64,000 nucleotides of DNA from Arcobacteraceae bacterium (lineage in GTDB: Bacteria > Campylobacterota > Campylobacteria > Campylobacterales > Arcobacteraceae), in NCBI GenBank assembly GCA_963677755.1, contig OY782506.1, positions 958,137 to 1,022,136 on the forward strand, written 5' to 3'. The position numbers and the translations under genes were made by a program. The notes beneath the pieces were generated by a model. It was not told the origin of the DNA. It worked only from the letters and a program-made list of their open reading frames with translations, and did not search any database. Positions within the stretch are counted from its first letter, which is position 1. Each line of letters opens with the position of its first letter. This document shows positions 11,214-64,000 of the stretch, piece by piece.

Positions 11214-12794
11214 ATGAAATTAAGCAAATTGTTAATTGCTATGGTATTAGTTGTTGGTTTGGGGAGTAGCTTATATGCTACGACAAAGGCTTCTTCAAAG
11301 GTAAGACATGAAAGTGTTAAAGATGCAAATGATAAGTGTGTTACATGTCACCTGAAAGAAAACAGGTCATTAGTTGATCATTATGAAAACTCAGCACATG
11401 CTGTATCAGATGTTGGATGTTTTACCTGTCATGCAGCAGATAAAAAAGATCCTTTAGGTTATGAACACGAAGGTGCTTTTATTAAAACAATTCAAACACC
11501 TAATGACTGTAATTTTTGTCATGTAAAAGAGGTGAAAGAGATGACAAACTCTCACCATGCAACTGCGGGTCAGATTATGGCATCTTTAGATAATATGCTT
11601 GCAGAAGTTATAGCATCTTTCCCAGATAGTAAAGCAGATGCTGTAAGTGGTTGTTGGCAATGTCATGGTGGAATTATTAAACCTGAAAAAGACAAACACG
11701 GTAAAATTATTTATAATGAGGCTGGTGCACCAGTTATGGATTGGATGACTTGGCCAAATTCAGGTATTGGTAGAATTAATCACGATGGAACAAGAGGCTC
11801 TTGTAATGCTTGTCACTCAAGACATGACTTTAGTTCTAGTCGGGCAAGACAACCAGAAAATTGTGGTAAATGTCACTTAGGTCCTGATCATCCTCAAAAA
11901 GAGATTTATGAAGAGTCTAAACACGGTATTGCCTATTATGCTGCACCAAAAGGTGATGTTCCAGGTGGTATGAATATTCATAAACAAGGTTCTTGGGTAT
12001 TAGGTAAAGATTATAACGCTGCACCTACTTGTGCTACTTGTCATATGGGTAGTTATAAAAAATCAAATGGTTCTATTGTAAAAGGAACACATAATGTTGG
12101 AGATAGAATTTCATGGACTTTGAGACCAGCTGTATCAGTTAAGTTGAATAGAGTAGTTTTTGAAGATGGTACTGTTCAAGATATTCCCGGTGAAAAAGCT
12201 CCAGCAATAGGTTCAATGCAAACTTTTAAAGATTATGAGAGAGTTGGAGATAAACTTAGCAAAATCATGAAAAAGAAAAAAGTTAAAGAGGTAATTTCTT
12301 GGGAAAAAAGAAGAGATAATATGAAACAAGTTTGTTCATCTTGTCACTCTGACCACCATGTGGATAACTTCTATAAACAATTTGATTCTTTAGTGAATAC
12401 ATATAATGATAAATTTGCAAAACCTGGTGTTGAACTAGTAAAACAAATGAAAAAAGATGGTGTTTGGAAGAAATCTGGGTTCCAACAAGATGATATAGGG
12501 TATATTTGGTTTGAGATATGGCATCATGAAGGGCGTCGAGCTAGACATGGAGCTGCAATGCAAGCACCAGATTTTACTCATTGGCATGGTATGTATGAAG
12601 TATCAAGACACTTTTATAATAAGTTTTTACCAAAAGTATTAAAACTTGCTAAAAAGGCTGGTATGGAAGATAAGTATAAAAAACTTATTAGTGATTTACT
12701 AGATAAACCTGAGCATGAATGGTATAAAACTGGTGGTAATCCTGCAACTCTTAAAATGATTGAAGAAGAGAATAAAGCAAGATACAAACAATAA
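11214..12794 (+). CDS. octahaem cytochrome c, hydroxylamine oxidoreductase (HAO) family
   Basis: Eight CXXCH motifs (CVTCH, CFTCH, CNFCH, CWQCH, CNACH, CGKCH, CATCH, CSSCH). HAO-like block CNACHSRHDFS...CGKCHLGPDHPQKEIYEESKHG. Signal peptide MKLSKLLIAMVLVVGLGSSLYA. ATG 11214 follows AAGGAG and is preferred over the track GTG at 11178. Confidence 0.8.
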   Translation: MKLSKLLIAMVLVVGLGSSLYATTKASSKVRHESVKDANDKCVTCHLKENRSLVDHYENSAHAVSDVGCFTCHAADKKDPLGYEHEGAFIKTIQTPNDCNFCHVKEVKEMTNSHHATAGQIMASLDNMLAEVIASFPDSKADAVSGCWQCHGGIIKPEKDKHGKIIYNEAGAPVMDWMTWPNSGIGRINHDGTRGSCNACHSRHDFSSSRARQPENCGKCHLGPDHPQKEIYEESKHGIAYYAAPKGDVPGGMNIHKQGSWVLGKDYNAAPTCATCHMGSYKKSNGSIVKGTHNVGDRISWTLRPAVSVKLNRVVFEDGTVQDIPGEKAPAIGSMQTFKDYERVGDKLSKIMKKKKVKEVISWEKRRDNMKQVCSSCHSDHHVDNFYKQFDSLVNTYNDKFAKPGVELVKQMKKDGVWKKSGFQQDDIGYIWFEIWHHEGRRARHGAAMQAPDFTHWHGMYEVSRHFYNKFLPKVLKLAKKAGMEDKYKKLISDLLDKPEHEWYKTGGNPATLKMIEEENKARYKQ

Positions 12795-59591: not shown

Positions 59592-59662
59592 AGGTAACGT
59601 TTGACTTGAGAAATAGTTTTGCCCGCTAGGGTAAACTATTTCTCTCCAAGGTTTTGTTAAAC
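59592..59662 (-). repeat. attC site A (belongs to the VOC cassette)
   Basis: Minus strand: R'' GTTTAAC ... GAGAAATAGTT/AACTATTTCTC stems ... R' GTTACCT. About 70 nt and a close relative of attC B and C. Confidence 0.8.
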
Positions 59663-60141: not shown

Positions 60142-60211
60142 GTTTAACGTTTGAGTTGAGAAATAAAATTAGCCGCAGGGTAATTTATTTCTCTCCAATG
60201 ATTTGTTAAAC
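60142..60211 (-). repeat. attC site B
   Basis: Minus strand R'' GTTTAAC (abuts the stop codon of the 100-aa ORF) ... R' GTTAAAC. Confidence 0.85.
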
Positions 60212-60534: not shown

Positions 60535-60604
60535 GTTTAACGGTTGAGTTGAGAAATAAGTTTGCCCGTAGGGTAACTTATTTCTCTCCAAAGTTTTGTT
60601 AGAT
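60535..60604 (-). repeat. attC site C
   Basis: Minus strand ATCTAAC-aaaactttgg-AGAGAAATAAGTTACCC-tac-GGGCAAACTTATTTCTC-aactcaacc-GTTAAAC, with bulged bases in the stem. Confidence 0.85.
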
Positions 60605-60899: not shown

Positions 60900-60967
60900 A
60901 TCTAACGACTGAATAGAGCGAATAAGTCGCCGCTAGGCTACTTATTCGTTCCTATGTTTTGTTAGGT
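60900..60967 (-). repeat. attC site D
   Basis: Minus strand R'' ACCTAAC ... CGAATAAGT/ACTTATTCG stems ... R' GTTAGAT. The 474-aa ORF runs 26 nt into it. Confidence 0.8.
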
Positions 60968-62366
60968 TTTTAATGTCAATTATAGTTCCTTCTTCTAAAG
61001 ACAAACATCTTAGTTTACCCATTTTCTGATACAATTTAAACTGTTCAACTGACTTTATTTCAATATTTTTTTCAAGTGAAAAAGTTATTAAAAATCTTTC
61101 TTTCTCTTTAACTTCATACTCTTGAAATTTTTCATTAGTAAATCCTATTGTAAATTCAATATTATCATCTAACTCGTTAAATAAAACTTCAAAGCTTTTT
61201 TCATCATTAACTAACTCAATAGCTTCTATAACTTCTGCAAATATAAAAACTAAATCTGGGTTAAAGTTTTCAACAATTTGATAAATTGAATTTTTAAAAA
61301 ATTGTTCACCAGCGAATAAGTTTAATCTTGAAACAATTGGTAAATTATTTCCTTCAAAAGTTTTAATACCTGTATCAGCATTGAAGTTTATATTAACTAT
61401 ATTTGTATCTTTAAATAAAGTCTTATCTATCGGATTTTTAGCAAAAGGATTATGAAATATAAATAATCCATCTGATAAAAACTCTGGATTATTTGAAGAT
61501 ACAATTTGAGGTTTAAAATGAGGTGGTTCTGTATCATGTCTCATACACAAGACTGTATTTAAATTTAAATTAGATTTACTTTGTGAAATTGATAATGATG
61601 TTAATTTTCCTAAAGTCACGGTAGAACTAAAAATTACAGCTGATATATGTTTCATTTTTTCATTTAAAAATAATCCAATAGGTATATCAGATGTACTATT
61701 TGGTTTTCTAATATTTTCTTTCTTGGTATATTTATCATTTAAATTATCATAATATAATCCATAAAGTAATGCAAACATGGCATAATAAAAGTTGTTACCA
61801 TAATTAATTTGTTCATAGCCACTTAAAGCTATTAAATATGGAGCAGTTATATCATAGTCTTCATCTTCTGAATAACCTTTGTGATATTTTCCTTTTTTTG
61901 AATATCCCGTATATTTTTCACTTTTTGATAAAATTGCATTTGAATACCTTACAATTGATTCTTTTAAATTTTCATCAAAGTTTTCTTGCATATGTACGGG
62001 TTCTATCATAGATATAATATCGTCTAAAGTTCTTTGTTCTTCTTGTGAGCCATCTTGCTTTATGTTTGCGACAACTGCTTCCACATAAATTTTTTGTGGT
62101 TTATTTATAATAAAGTCAGGTCTGTTTTTTGTAAAATCTATTTCAAATCCAGCTTCTTTAAATACGGCAAACAAATAAAATTCCCAAAATGATGAATGAA
62201 ATGTTGTTTGAAATTCTTTAACAATTTTATTATCTCTATCTTCAAACCCATCAATCCAGTCTTTTAAAATATCATGTTCTCCAGTTAAGAATAAATTATT
62301 TTTAATAGTTTCATATTTAGGATGTAATTTTTCTTTTTCTGTAGTTATTGAAAATAAATCTATCAT
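60942..62366 (-). CDS. hypothetical 474-aa protein, cassette 2 (possible N-terminal PD-(D/E)xK-like nuclease fold)
   Basis: The single long ORF filling a 1489-bp cassette. N-terminal segment FWEFYLFAVFKEAGFEIDFTKNRPDFIINKPQKIYVEAVVANIK has the helix / PD / hydrophobic-E pattern of restriction-endonuclease-like folds. That reading is weak and made by eye only. Confidence 0.7.
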   Translation of the reverse strand: MIDLFSITTEKEKLHPKYETIKNNLFLTGEHDILKDWIDGFEDRDNKIVKEFQTTFHSSFWEFYLFAVFKEAGFEIDFTKNRPDFIINKPQKIYVEAVVANIKQDGSQEEQRTLDDIISMIEPVHMQENFDENLKESIVRYSNAILSKSEKYTGYSKKGKYHKGYSEDEDYDITAPYLIALSGYEQINYGNNFYYAMFALLYGLYYDNLNDKYTKKENIRKPNSTSDIPIGLFLNEKMKHISAVIFSSTVTLGKLTSLSISQSKSNLNLNTVLCMRHDTEPPHFKPQIVSSNNPEFLSDGLFIFHNPFAKNPIDKTLFKDTNIVNINFNADTGIKTFEGNNLPIVSRLNLFAGEQFFKNSIYQIVENFNPDLVFIFAEVIEAIELVNDEKSFEVLFNELDDNIEFTIGFTNEKFQEYEVKEKERFLITFSLEKNIEIKSVEQFKLYQKMGKLRCLSLEEGTIIDIKNLTKHRNE

Positions 62367-62388
62367 TTTTATGCCTTTATGTTTGTGA

Positions 62389-62519
62389 ACCTAACGCCTA
62401 AAGCAAAAAACAAGGGGATATTTTACTTGGATGTTTGCTTTGTCTTTTTGGTTGCTTTACAAAATAAAACTTTAAATTATCGCAAGTATACCCTTGTTTT
62501 TTTCGGTGTATTGTTATCA
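62389..62519 (-). repeat. attC site E (long, divergent; belongs to the TA cassette)
   Basis: 131 nt. Minus strand R'' TGATAAC ... AAAAAACAAGGG/CCCTTGTTTTTT stems with a large central loop ... R' GTTAGGT. Confidence 0.7.
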
Positions 62520-62523
62520 TATC

Positions 62524-62850
62524 TTAATATTCAAATATCTCCGTAAGCATTTTTGATATTTCTTTTGATTTATTTTTTTCTACTGTACCAATTTTTTTAA
62601 CTACTCTAGTTTTATCAACTGCTCTGATTTGGTCTAATAATACTAAACCATTTTTATCTTCAAATTCTATTTTTGGTCTAAAAATAAAATTAAACCCTTT
62701 GCTTGTCATTGGAGCAATAATAATTGTTTTTAAAACATTCATTTCATTTGGTGATATTATAATACAAGGTCTAGTTTTTTGAATTTCTGAACCAACAGTT
62801 GGATTTAATTTTACTAAAACTATATCAAATCTATTTATTTCATCTACCAT
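62524..62850 (-). CDS. mazF: PemK/MazF-family toxin, cassette 1
   Basis: 108 aa. FDIVLVKLNPTVGSEIQKTRPCIIISP motif. 7-nt overlap with the antitoxin gene. Confidence 0.85.
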   Translation of the reverse strand: MVDEINRFDIVLVKLNPTVGSEIQKTRPCIIISPNEMNVLKTIIIAPMTSKGFNFIFRPKIEFEDKNGLVLLDQIRAVDKTRVVKKIGTVEKNKSKEISKMLTEIFEY

Positions 62851-63104
62851 TGATAATCTTCTAAATCATTATCATTTAATAACTCATCAATTATAGCTTC
62901 GTCTTCAATATTTTTATTTTGTAATAAAATATTTTCAATGTTATCTTTCCAATTTTCTCTTCTTGAAGTTAAAATTGGTTTTAACAATAATCCATTTTCA
63001 ACAACTTCTAAATCAATTTGAACATTTTCAAGATGTGCTTGTGCAATTAATGGCTTTGGTATTCTTATACCTTGTGAATTTCCTATTCTTGTTAACATTG
63101 TCAT
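62844..63104 (-). CDS. mazE: AbrB/MazE/SpoVT-family antitoxin, cassette 1
   Basis: 86 aa. IGNSQGIRIPKPLI swapped-hairpin motif and an acidic C-terminus. Confidence 0.8.
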   Translation of the reverse strand: MTMLTRIGNSQGIRIPKPLIAQAHLENVQIDLEVVENGLLLKPILTSRRENWKDNIENILLQNKNIEDEAIIDELLNDNDLEDYQW

Positions 63105-63485: not shown

Positions 63486-64000
63486 ATGGGTAAAAAATTA
63501 TTAGAAATTATGGCTGATAAAATTAGATTTAAACACTATAGTATTAGTACAGAAAAAACTTATGTGCATTGGGCTAAGCGATATATACTTTTTCACAATA
63601 AACGACATCCAAAAGATATGGGAAAAATTGAGATAGAACAGTTCTTAACTCATCTGGCCACTAAGTTAAATGTATCTCCAACCACTCAAAATCAAGCGTT
63701 CAATGCAATATTATTTTTGTATGAGCAAGTTTTAAACATATCGTTAAAAGATCAGAATATTCAAGCTTTAAGAGCACAAGAGAGAAAACATATTCCAGTA
63801 GTGCTTACAATAGATGAAGTAAAAAGTATTATATTAAATATGTCAGGTATTTACCAACTGATGGTTAAGCTTATGTATGGTTGTGGTTTAAGGATGAAAG
63901 AAGTACAAAATATTCGTATAAAAGACATTGACTTTGGATTTGATAAAATCTATATTTGGGATAGTAAATCTTTAAAAGACAGAACTTTACCACTTCCTTT
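63486..64000 (+). CDS. intI: integron integrase IntI, N-terminal 171 codons (continues beyond the window)
   Basis: GGAGG RBS then ATG 63486, with the frame open to the window end. IRFKHYSISTEKTYVHWAKRYILFHNKRHPKDMG..VSPTTQNQAFNAILFLYEQVL...PVVLTIDEV...LMYGCGLRMKEVQNIRIKDIDF is collinear with IntI1 ([30 protein letters not shown]...STHRQALAALLFFYGKVL...[22 protein letters not shown]). Confidence 0.85.
   Translation, partial: MGKKLLEIMADKIRFKHYSISTEKTYVHWAKRYILFHNKRHPKDMGKIEIEQFLTHLATKLNVSPTTQNQAFNAILFLYEQVLNISLKDQNIQALRAQERKHIPVVLTIDEVKSIILNMSGIYQLMVKLMYGCGLRMKEVQNIRIKDIDFGFDKIYIWDSKSLKDRTLPLP

Follow-up and report, generated by a model that had tools for sequence, protein, structure and literature searches.

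In an Arcobacter-like genome (Campylobacterota), the second cassette of a small integron on the chromosome probably encodes a stand-alone anti-phage protein of the PD-T7-5 family with a divergent nuclease mechanism. The cassette lies near the end of the stretch of DNA that we analysed, 64,000 nucleotides of contig OY782506.1 (positions 958,137 to 1,022,136, forward strand), referred to below as the window. Its open reading frame (ORF) is complete, with an ATG start and 474 codons plus stop; we estimate the chance probability of so long an ORF at ~1e-17, taking ~25-30% GC DNA and ~8% stop codons per codon. The features that carry this reading are:

60942..62366, minus strand: ORF of the PD-T7-5-family protein (sequence, PADLOC profile, homologs)
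61323..62363, minus strand: conserved PD-T7-5 core, residues 2-348 (PADLOC PDLC04110, PHROG 8571)
61737..62366, minus strand: predicted N-terminal restriction-endonuclease-like domain, residues 1-210, with helix 57-71, strands 75-77, 85-89 and 93-99, long helix 130-153 and strand 177-182 (AlphaFold models, Foldseek)
62070..62198, minus strand: candidate catalytic segment, residues 57-99, with invariant E62, P83-D84 and E96, and V at position 98 (conservation; the same stretch in HHpred analysis of the family founder)
60945..61259, minus strand: family-specific, OB-like tail, residues 370-474, with strands 372-384, 391-398 and 404-410, a helix, strand 424-430, helical insert 440-455 and strand 461-467 (AlphaFold model, Foldseek, tail comparison)
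60906..62394, minus strand: cassette 2, the target cassette, 1489 bp (R' cores, repeat analysis)
60900..60968, minus strand: attC of the target cassette, R'' ACCTAAC ... R' GTTAGAT in minus-strand reading (repeats, folding, alignment)

Membership of the PD-T7-5 family

The protein matched the PADLOC profile for PD-T7-5 (PDLC04110) with E = 3.2e-79 and 264.5 bits, residues 2-348 aligning with profile positions 1-337 of 346 (97%). It also matched the PD-T7-1 profile (PDLC04073; E = 2.8e-42, residues 2-346 on positions 108-442 of 452) and PHROG 8571, a family of unknown function, at 1e-67. On the same PD-T7-5 model, a copy carried by an E. coli IncF plasmid scored 236 bits, below the 264 of the window protein, with which it shares 32% identity across residues 3-347. 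There were 689 homologs (best E = 4e-287), the nearest two at 91% and 89% identity; the contig index contained no exact copy of the window protein. Genomic loci, 49 at species level, are spread over many phyla. Judged by these profile matches, the 474-residue protein is almost certainly a member of the PD-T7-5 family. The gene is thus not new as a defence system, and a standard defence annotator would name it.

The single-gene systems PD-T7-5 (E. coli UMB0934, RRM82777.1) and PD-T7-1 (ECOR46) came out of a functional selection with phage T7, and their activity was validated with the cloned genes. Each bears the label 'Nuclease', and PD-T7-5, the founder, makes cells resistant to phage with adsorption intact (Vassallo et al. 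2022, PMC9519451; labels in Tables S1-S3). An earlier, sequence-only reading of the window had put the gene forward as a candidate single-gene defence system, which was the right direction, as the protein falls in a validated single-gene anti-phage family. The same reading called the gene orphan and possibly novel, a description that the PADLOC match and the 689 homologs overturn, and could assign no motif to it with confidence. The latter holds for Pfam, NCBIfam and PDB sequences, where the single protein, an 88-sequence profile, the middle domain and the tail each searched alone, and a tail profile gave no meaningful match, and fails for PADLOC and PHROGs.

A predicted N-terminal domain with the element order of PD-(D/E)xK nucleases

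AlphaFold2, run with the 88-sequence alignment, gave a confident full-chain model in three parts, with a mean local confidence (pLDDT) of 92.1 and a predicted template-modelling score (pTM) of 0.90; residues 1-210 modelled alone reached pLDDT 90.7. The full-chain model puts E62 on helix 57-71, E96 on strand 93-99 and D84 where strand 85-89 begins. The predicted succession of elements (helix 57-71, strands 75-77, 85-89 and 93-99, helix 114-153 and strand 177-182, all with pLDDT >90) is that of the PD-(D/E)xK core, a correspondence in element order only. The carboxylate positions of that core are filled by D84 (start of strand 2), E96 (strand 3) and E62 (helix 1, where Glu is frequent in the superfamily). 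The three strings in which the sequence-only reading had seen a nuclease-like arrangement are located as it stated, WEFYLF at residues 61-66, RPDFII at 82-87 and IYVEAVV at 93-99.

Conservation among 44 relatives, down to 29% identity, singled out the same residues. E62, D84 and E96 are invariant in all 44, as are R140, K148, K254, E295 and N306; D45, K47, P83 and R347 are conserved in 43 of the 44, and K103 in only 32.

With residues 1-210 as query, Foldseek returned 24 matches in all, none of them significant, about 20 of which are PD-(D/E)xK enzymes: the DdmD nuclease domain, Hjc, PvuII, a CdiA-CT toxin, Eco15I-N, Bax1, EndA/tRNA-splicing endonucleases, NhoI and SPARDA. What speaks for the predicted fold is the consistency of these weak matches. 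HHpred matches reported for the founder point to the same stretch (residues ~49-107 in every case, over ~50 residues) and comprise, with their probabilities, FokI_C (63%), BsuBI/PstI (60%), Vsr (59%), AHJR-like (47%), PDDEXK_5 (43%) and RmuC (41%) (Vassallo 2022, PMC9519451). The founder's authors described such similarities as 'restricted to a small region or motif' and considered phage sensing by orphan DNase-like proteins unclear (Vassallo 2022, PMC9519451). The 'nuclease' label of PD-T7-5 and PD-T7-1 rests on weak evidence.

Two further motif readings were set aside. D45-N-K47, as a literal '(D/E)xK', is no more than a candidate, being in the loop ahead of helix 1 and not on strand 3; TLGKLTS (residues 250-257) does not fit the P-loop pattern GxxxxGK[ST].

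The conserved middle and the C-terminal tail

Residues 111-348, part of the conserved PD-T7-5 core, are β-rich and have invariant polar residues of their own. Within them, the conserved β-rich middle (residues ~204-350) carries K254, E295, D299, H305-N306 and R347. Isolated-domain searches and whole-chain Foldseek detected no relatives of this middle domain beyond the PD-T7-5 family. Most of the C-terminal ~350 residues that the sequence-only reading had left unassigned thus belong to the core (residues 111-348), and residues ~370-474 alone are an add-on.

Tails vary within the family. Of 164 family proteins, 81 stop just past the core (~350-380 residues), the E. coli copies also being without a tail, while 78 bear a tail of 68-115 residues from one homologous family and a few have unrelated tails. 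The homologous tails occur in two versions; the Aliarcobacter type (type B) lacks a helical insert of ~20 residues that precedes the last strand in the window type. In the model the tail runs as three strands, helix, strand, insert and strand, an order compatible with an OB barrel, which has five strands and a helix after the third. Almost all entries in the whole-chain Foldseek list are OB folds (Teb1 OB-B, RPA, ModE/ModG Mop, SSB and MetRS-C/EMAP; E = 0.02-0.2, several with probability ~1.0, the aligned query range not being reported), and these disappear when residues 1-210 are the sole query. On the model, residues 370-474 probably form a small OB-like β-barrel.

A search of 1.84 billion representative proteins with the tail alone found family members or fragments of them, plus TPR repeat proteins. 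The apparent kinship to TPR_12/TPR_10 proteins (E down to 6e-17) was rejected as a repeat-summed artefact, in which one stretch of ~35 residues, the helical insert missing from type B tails, matches 5-10 repeats. Because the search otherwise gave only family members and fragments, the tail appears, by sequence comparison, to be specific to the PD-T7-5 family.

Anatomy of the cassette and its array

The PD-T7-5-family ORF is the sole gene of its cassette, which lies on the minus strand between two attC sites. The R' cores on both sides, at plus-strand positions 62389-62395 (ACCTAAC) and 60900-60906 (TCTAAC), set its span at 60906..62394 and its length at 1489 bp, reproducing exactly the figure that the sequence-only reading had given for a one-gene cassette with a 474-residue product. 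The target attC folds into an imperfect hairpin (-13.2 kcal/mol, z = -4.4), and so does the 131-nucleotide attC upstream (z = -2.2). The target site can be aligned with the three other ~70-nucleotide attC sites of the array, its inner arms differing yet still pairing, and it contains the final eight codons and the stop of the ORF.

The array consists of five minus-strand cassettes, divergent from the integrase gene intI, which encode MazE/MazF, the target, an 83-residue ORF, a 100-residue ORF and a glyoxalase-fold protein; its inner end adjoins the 2-oxoglutarate:ferredoxin oxidoreductase (Kor) operon. All five share one orientation beside intI and attI, as integron cassettes do. The order intI fragment, MazE/MazF cassette, target bears out the earlier statement that the gene is second in the array. 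The intI fragment (63486 to the window end, plus strand) matched Pfam Phage_int_SAM_4 at 1.6e-29 and Phage_integrase at 6e-10. The neighbouring features are:

62389..62519, minus strand: 131-nucleotide attC of the MazEF cassette, whose R' core places the target cassette's 5' border at 62394 (sequence, folding)
62524..63104, minus strand: mazE (62844-63104) and mazF/pemK (62524-62850), the first cassette; context, outside the defence system (ORFs, Pfam)
63165->63137, minus strand: consensus sigma-70 promoter-like site, TTGACA-17-TATAAT, in cassette 1 upstream of mazE (12/12 consensus match)
63486..64000, plus strand: 5' portion of the integron integrase gene intI, which continues beyond the window (Pfam, IntI comparison)

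The attC that follows the MazE/MazF (PemK) cassette is unusually long compared with the ~70-nucleotide sites elsewhere in the array. Three of the latter (59593-59662, 60142-60211 and 60535-60604) are mutually 86-89% identical, and each follows a small ORF: the 83- and 100-residue ORFs, which have no family match, and the 146-residue glyoxalase-fold protein. The innermost R' core (GGTAAC), at the junction of array and Kor operon, looks degenerate. By comparison with a related array described below (L044), the attI crossover was placed at ...CAATAAA(G/T)AGTTA, ~63190.

As far as sequence goes, the gene was rightly described as lying downstream of a strong promoter, given the 12/12 TTGACA-17-TATAAT site ahead of mazE. 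Going by its sequence, that promoter may supply the target cassette with read-through transcripts. Expression of the target would come from the integron Pc promoter, from read-through out of the MazEF cassette, or from both.

Genomic contexts of relatives

For most of the relatives examined, the surroundings are of mobile or defence type. A homolog adjoins a HEPN gene in a Vreelandella prophage locus (L002), shares an Aliarcobacter butzleri island with an integrase, KAP-NTPase, PIN and resolvase, and occurs with Bro-N and a transposase in a Chromobacterium region. Others are carried by a Bacteroidota integrative and conjugative element (ICE), by a region with transposase, restriction endonuclease and NACHT genes, by a plasmid-like contig with ParAB and DnaB, by the E. 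coli IncF plasmid, where the homolog is beside a RelE/ParE toxin gene, and by eight IMG/VR viral contigs. The neighbours differ in every homolog context examined, with no conserved neighbour gene, and for this reason a single-gene system fits. The sequence-only reading had proposed to look for homologs in integron cassettes or defence islands; they do recur in such cassettes, and also on islands of mobile or defence type.

Some copies showed further peculiarities. Only one viral-contig copy has the tail (L065, 5639-7193; IMG/VR UViG 2775507011_000002). It is 67% identical to the window protein and split into ORFs of 320 and 160 residues, the result of either a frameshift or a sequencing error; its layout resembles that of the Vreelandella prophage locus, in which the HEPN gene comes after the homolog. 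In four Bacteroidota genomes (L007, L019, L021, L041) a 74-nucleotide hairpin, CGTAAACAGGAAATCCG...CGGTTTACA, is conserved ~45 nucleotides downstream of a core-only homolog; possible identities are a terminator, a recombination site and a segment of the gene that follows. At the locus of the 89% identical relative (P0002; L001, 6185-7612), cassette borders are absent and no R' core follows the gene. The coding sequence there retains an R''-like CTAACAAA, and this copy, which may be pre-cassette or de-cassetted, is relevant to the origin of cassettes.

Family members in other integrons

Three further arrays hold family members. In an Arcobacter sp. BM102 metagenome-assembled genome (L044; PKUJ01000027, 6970-12500), the integrase is 92% identical to that of the window and the attI region is homologous, and the cassettes are entirely different, which lends indirect support to excision and insertion of cassettes by IntI. 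The integrase match, together with the AT-rich Kor genes, also points to an Arcobacter-like origin of the window. Another family member, 33% identical and 406 residues long, is the third ORF of that array and stands behind a clear attC. A Photobacterium carnosum locus (L032) has a truncated intI-like ORF followed by a homolog and an acyltransferase, each with a near-identical attC of ~115 nucleotides, and an Endozoicomonas locus (L045) has a homolog with at least four attC repeats that are 89-91% identical. With the window, four independent arrays hold PD-T7-5, and two of these share an orthologous integrase and carry different family members. The count covers individually verified arrays only; scanning 51 homolog loci systematically for attC sites was given up, as a strict pattern missed known cases and a relaxed one had a background of ~10%.

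In the Arcobacter sp. BM102 array, the ORF and attC of the first cassette are GC-rich although the genome is AT-rich, a contrast suggestive of import from a distant donor. Just downstream of the homolog there (11250-11400), a short interrupted frame with Cys/His-rich motifs (CIFCFEKG..., EHIIPESL..., CDKCQNYFG) looks like a remnant of an HNH-type gene. Two Aliarcobacter genomes have a 103-nucleotide attC-like palindrome (GTTCAAC...GTTGAAC) directly 3' of the homolog (L003, 9394-9496; L011, 11376-11478). These loci were not counted as integrons: no repeated attC family was found in L003, and neither genome has a recognisable integron array. The 103-nucleotide element may be an orphan attC.

Discussion

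Homology to a validated family makes a defence role for the gene in this host likely. In the mechanism that we propose, the N-terminal domain would be a divergent restriction-endonuclease-like nuclease of the PD-(D/E)xK type, with metal-binding carboxylates on helix 1 (E62), at the start of strand 2 (D84) and on strand 3 (E96) and the usual lysine supplied from elsewhere, K47, K148 and K254 being the candidates. Gating of the nuclease would fall to the β-rich middle (residues ~204-350) and the OB-like tail (370-474), which would bind nucleic acid or a trigger of phage origin, and cleavage after infection would affect phage DNA or, in an abortive response, all DNA. Several active PD-(D/E)xK enzymes, BamHI, BglII and Vsr among them, are well known to have the lysine relocated or missing. 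On the structural models, a restriction-endonuclease-like nuclease with a relocated lysine is the likeliest mechanism, with slightly better than an even chance of being correct.

A number of observations weigh against this proposal, in its mechanism or in its biology. At position 98, where the (D/E)xK lysine would normally stand, 37 of the 44 relatives have V, seven have T and none has K; with V or T in every member, the active site would be non-canonical. No significant structural match to a solved nuclease was found, the best Foldseek E-value for residues 1-210 being 0.6, and the whole chain gave nothing below E = 0.001 in the PDB and BFVD (best PDB E = 0.02). Searches of Pfam and NCBIfam gave no match, and no family member with a solved structure or a demonstrated biochemical activity was found, PDB sequence searches included. 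Defence has been shown solely for an E. coli relative that is ~32% identical and has no tail. Two relatives also stand in unexpected places. The 89% identical one is at the end of an operon-like run, its start overlapping the stop of a major facilitator superfamily transporter gene. A tail-bearing homolog that is 63% identical (P0019; L057-L059, 13 contigs) lies inside a surface-polysaccharide cluster in the order WbqC, NeuB, CMP-sugar transferase, PIG-L, DegT, homolog, pyruvyl transferase, flippase, Wzy and glycosyltransferase, and overlaps the DegT gene by seven nucleotides, an unusual place for a defence gene.

The earlier suggestion of a PD-(D/E)xK-like N-terminus thus stands in its carboxylates, invariant in all 44 relatives, and in the helix-strand-strand-strand succession of a confident model, and falls short in the lysine and in the significance of any match. 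Structure prediction, one of the checks proposed with it, gave a model with the expected element order and a best Foldseek E-value of 0.6.

These points give some room to other explanations. The protein might be a PD-T7-5 defence protein whose N-terminal fold is a DNA-binding or sensor module, the chemistry residing in the central cluster (K254, E295, D299, H305-N306, R347) or the action being one of binding or blocking. The missing lysine and the sub-threshold level of every nuclease similarity would agree with a non-catalytic N-terminus, and the central domain, which matches no known fold or family, equals the N-terminal domain in its number of invariant polar residues. We nevertheless regard this as unlikely, if well worth keeping in mind: E62, D84 and E96 occupy the exact carboxylate positions of the PD-(D/E)xK core, their invariance in all 44 relatives is hard to reconcile with a solely structural role, and a relocated or missing lysine is, as in BamHI, BglII and Vsr, compatible with activity. 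A main role in conflict between mobile elements (anti-plasmid or anti-transformation activity, or stabilisation of the carrier) rather than in phage defence would suit a family that rides on plasmids, ICEs, prophages and integrons, whose E. coli plasmid copy adjoins a RelE/ParE toxin gene and whose window copy comes after MazEF; DdmD, the top weak structural match, is itself an anti-plasmid nuclease. That match has E = 0.6 and probability 0.15, however, mobile carriage is equally typical of anti-phage genes, and the founder was selected and validated by phage challenge, so that we give such a role only a small chance.

It is very improbable that the cassette is a silent or decaying passenger with no present function in its host. 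Cassettes distal to Pc are often poorly expressed, a 131-nucleotide attC hairpin stands between promoter and gene, and the viral-contig homolog is split in two ORFs; yet the window ORF is intact and of full length compared with its 91% and 89% identical relatives, keeps all family-invariant residues and is second in the array, behind a consensus promoter. Its GC content at third codon positions (13.1%) also agrees with that of host genes (12.6-14.0%). A non-defence role for the family, such as surface-polysaccharide biosynthesis, is scarcely credible even with the homolog that sits, on 13 contigs, between DegT and a pyruvyl-transferase/flippase/Wzy block. This is one context among more than 15 examined, the others being mobile or defence-like, and glycan loci are themselves hypervariable insertion sites; moreover, the founder phenotype is phage resistance with adsorption intact (Vassallo 2022, PMC9519451).

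The proposed reading, a PD-T7-5-family defence protein with a divergent nuclease domain, can be set beside several known systems. Like the founder, the window protein is encoded by a single gene, has the invariant E...PD...E segment from which the 'nuclease' label derives, and is carried on a mobile element. The E. coli copies are shorter (~387-390 residues), ~32% identical and without the extra OB-like C-terminal domain of ~105 residues; the window protein differs from the founder also in its AT-rich Campylobacterota host and its packaging as an integron cassette. PD-T7-1 (E. coli ECOR46, RCQ85672.1) shares the core of ~335 residues and is likewise a validated single-gene defence, stronger against T-even phages than against T7, but it belongs to a more distant clade and has an N-terminal extension of ~107 residues in place of the C-terminal tail.

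Shedu (SduA) and further single-protein PD-(D/E)xK defence nucleases offer a working analogy, in that a single polypeptide combines a restriction-endonuclease-fold core with variable accessory or sensor domains (bioRxiv 10.1101/2023.08.10.552793). The DUF4263 core of Shedu has a canonical active site, unlike the domain described here; the two have no detectable sequence or significant structural relation, and we do not claim membership. Hjc, PvuII and the DdmD nuclease domain lead both the weak Foldseek list for residues 1-210 and the founder's HHpred list, with the same element order and acidic residues at equivalent positions. The matches have E-values of 0.6-9 and TM-scores of 0.15-0.3, and the window family differs from these enzymes in having V or T for the lysine and in large insertions of its own, namely a helical N-terminus, where the motif D-R-D-x-K is invariant, and a helix of 24 residues.

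Defence systems in the cassettes of mobile integrons have reportedly been described by Kieffer et al. For sedentary chromosomal integrons, cassettes as stores of compact defence systems are published (Darracq et al. 2024, bioRxiv 10.1101/2024.07.02.601686), and the arrangement seen in the window, a compact single-gene defence system beside a toxin-antitoxin cassette, resembles those cases. The main text of that work names PfiAT, Shedu, AbiV and PD-T7-4 and not PD-T7-5, and a text search of it did not find 'Arcobacter' (bioRxiv 10.1101/2024.07.02.601686). The window cassette, of 1489 bp, is large for a cassette.

It is conceivable, though we hold it to be doubtful, that the tail-bearing proteins constitute a distinct, undescribed sub-type of PD-T7-5, in which an OB-like sensor (for phage single-stranded DNA or replication intermediates, for example) activates an atypical E-D-E nuclease with a relocated lysine, and that the family has been recruited recurrently by chromosomal integrons of marine and host-associated Proteobacteria and Campylobacterota. 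The finding itself adds PD-T7-5 to the defence families present in integron cassettes, a result of the expected kind that will not surprise specialists, and turns an unexplained large cassette into an annotated defence gene. With the residues listed here (E62, D84, E96; K47, K148, K254; E295, D299, H305, N306, R347) and a C-terminal domain that can be removed, the mechanism of the family is directly testable.

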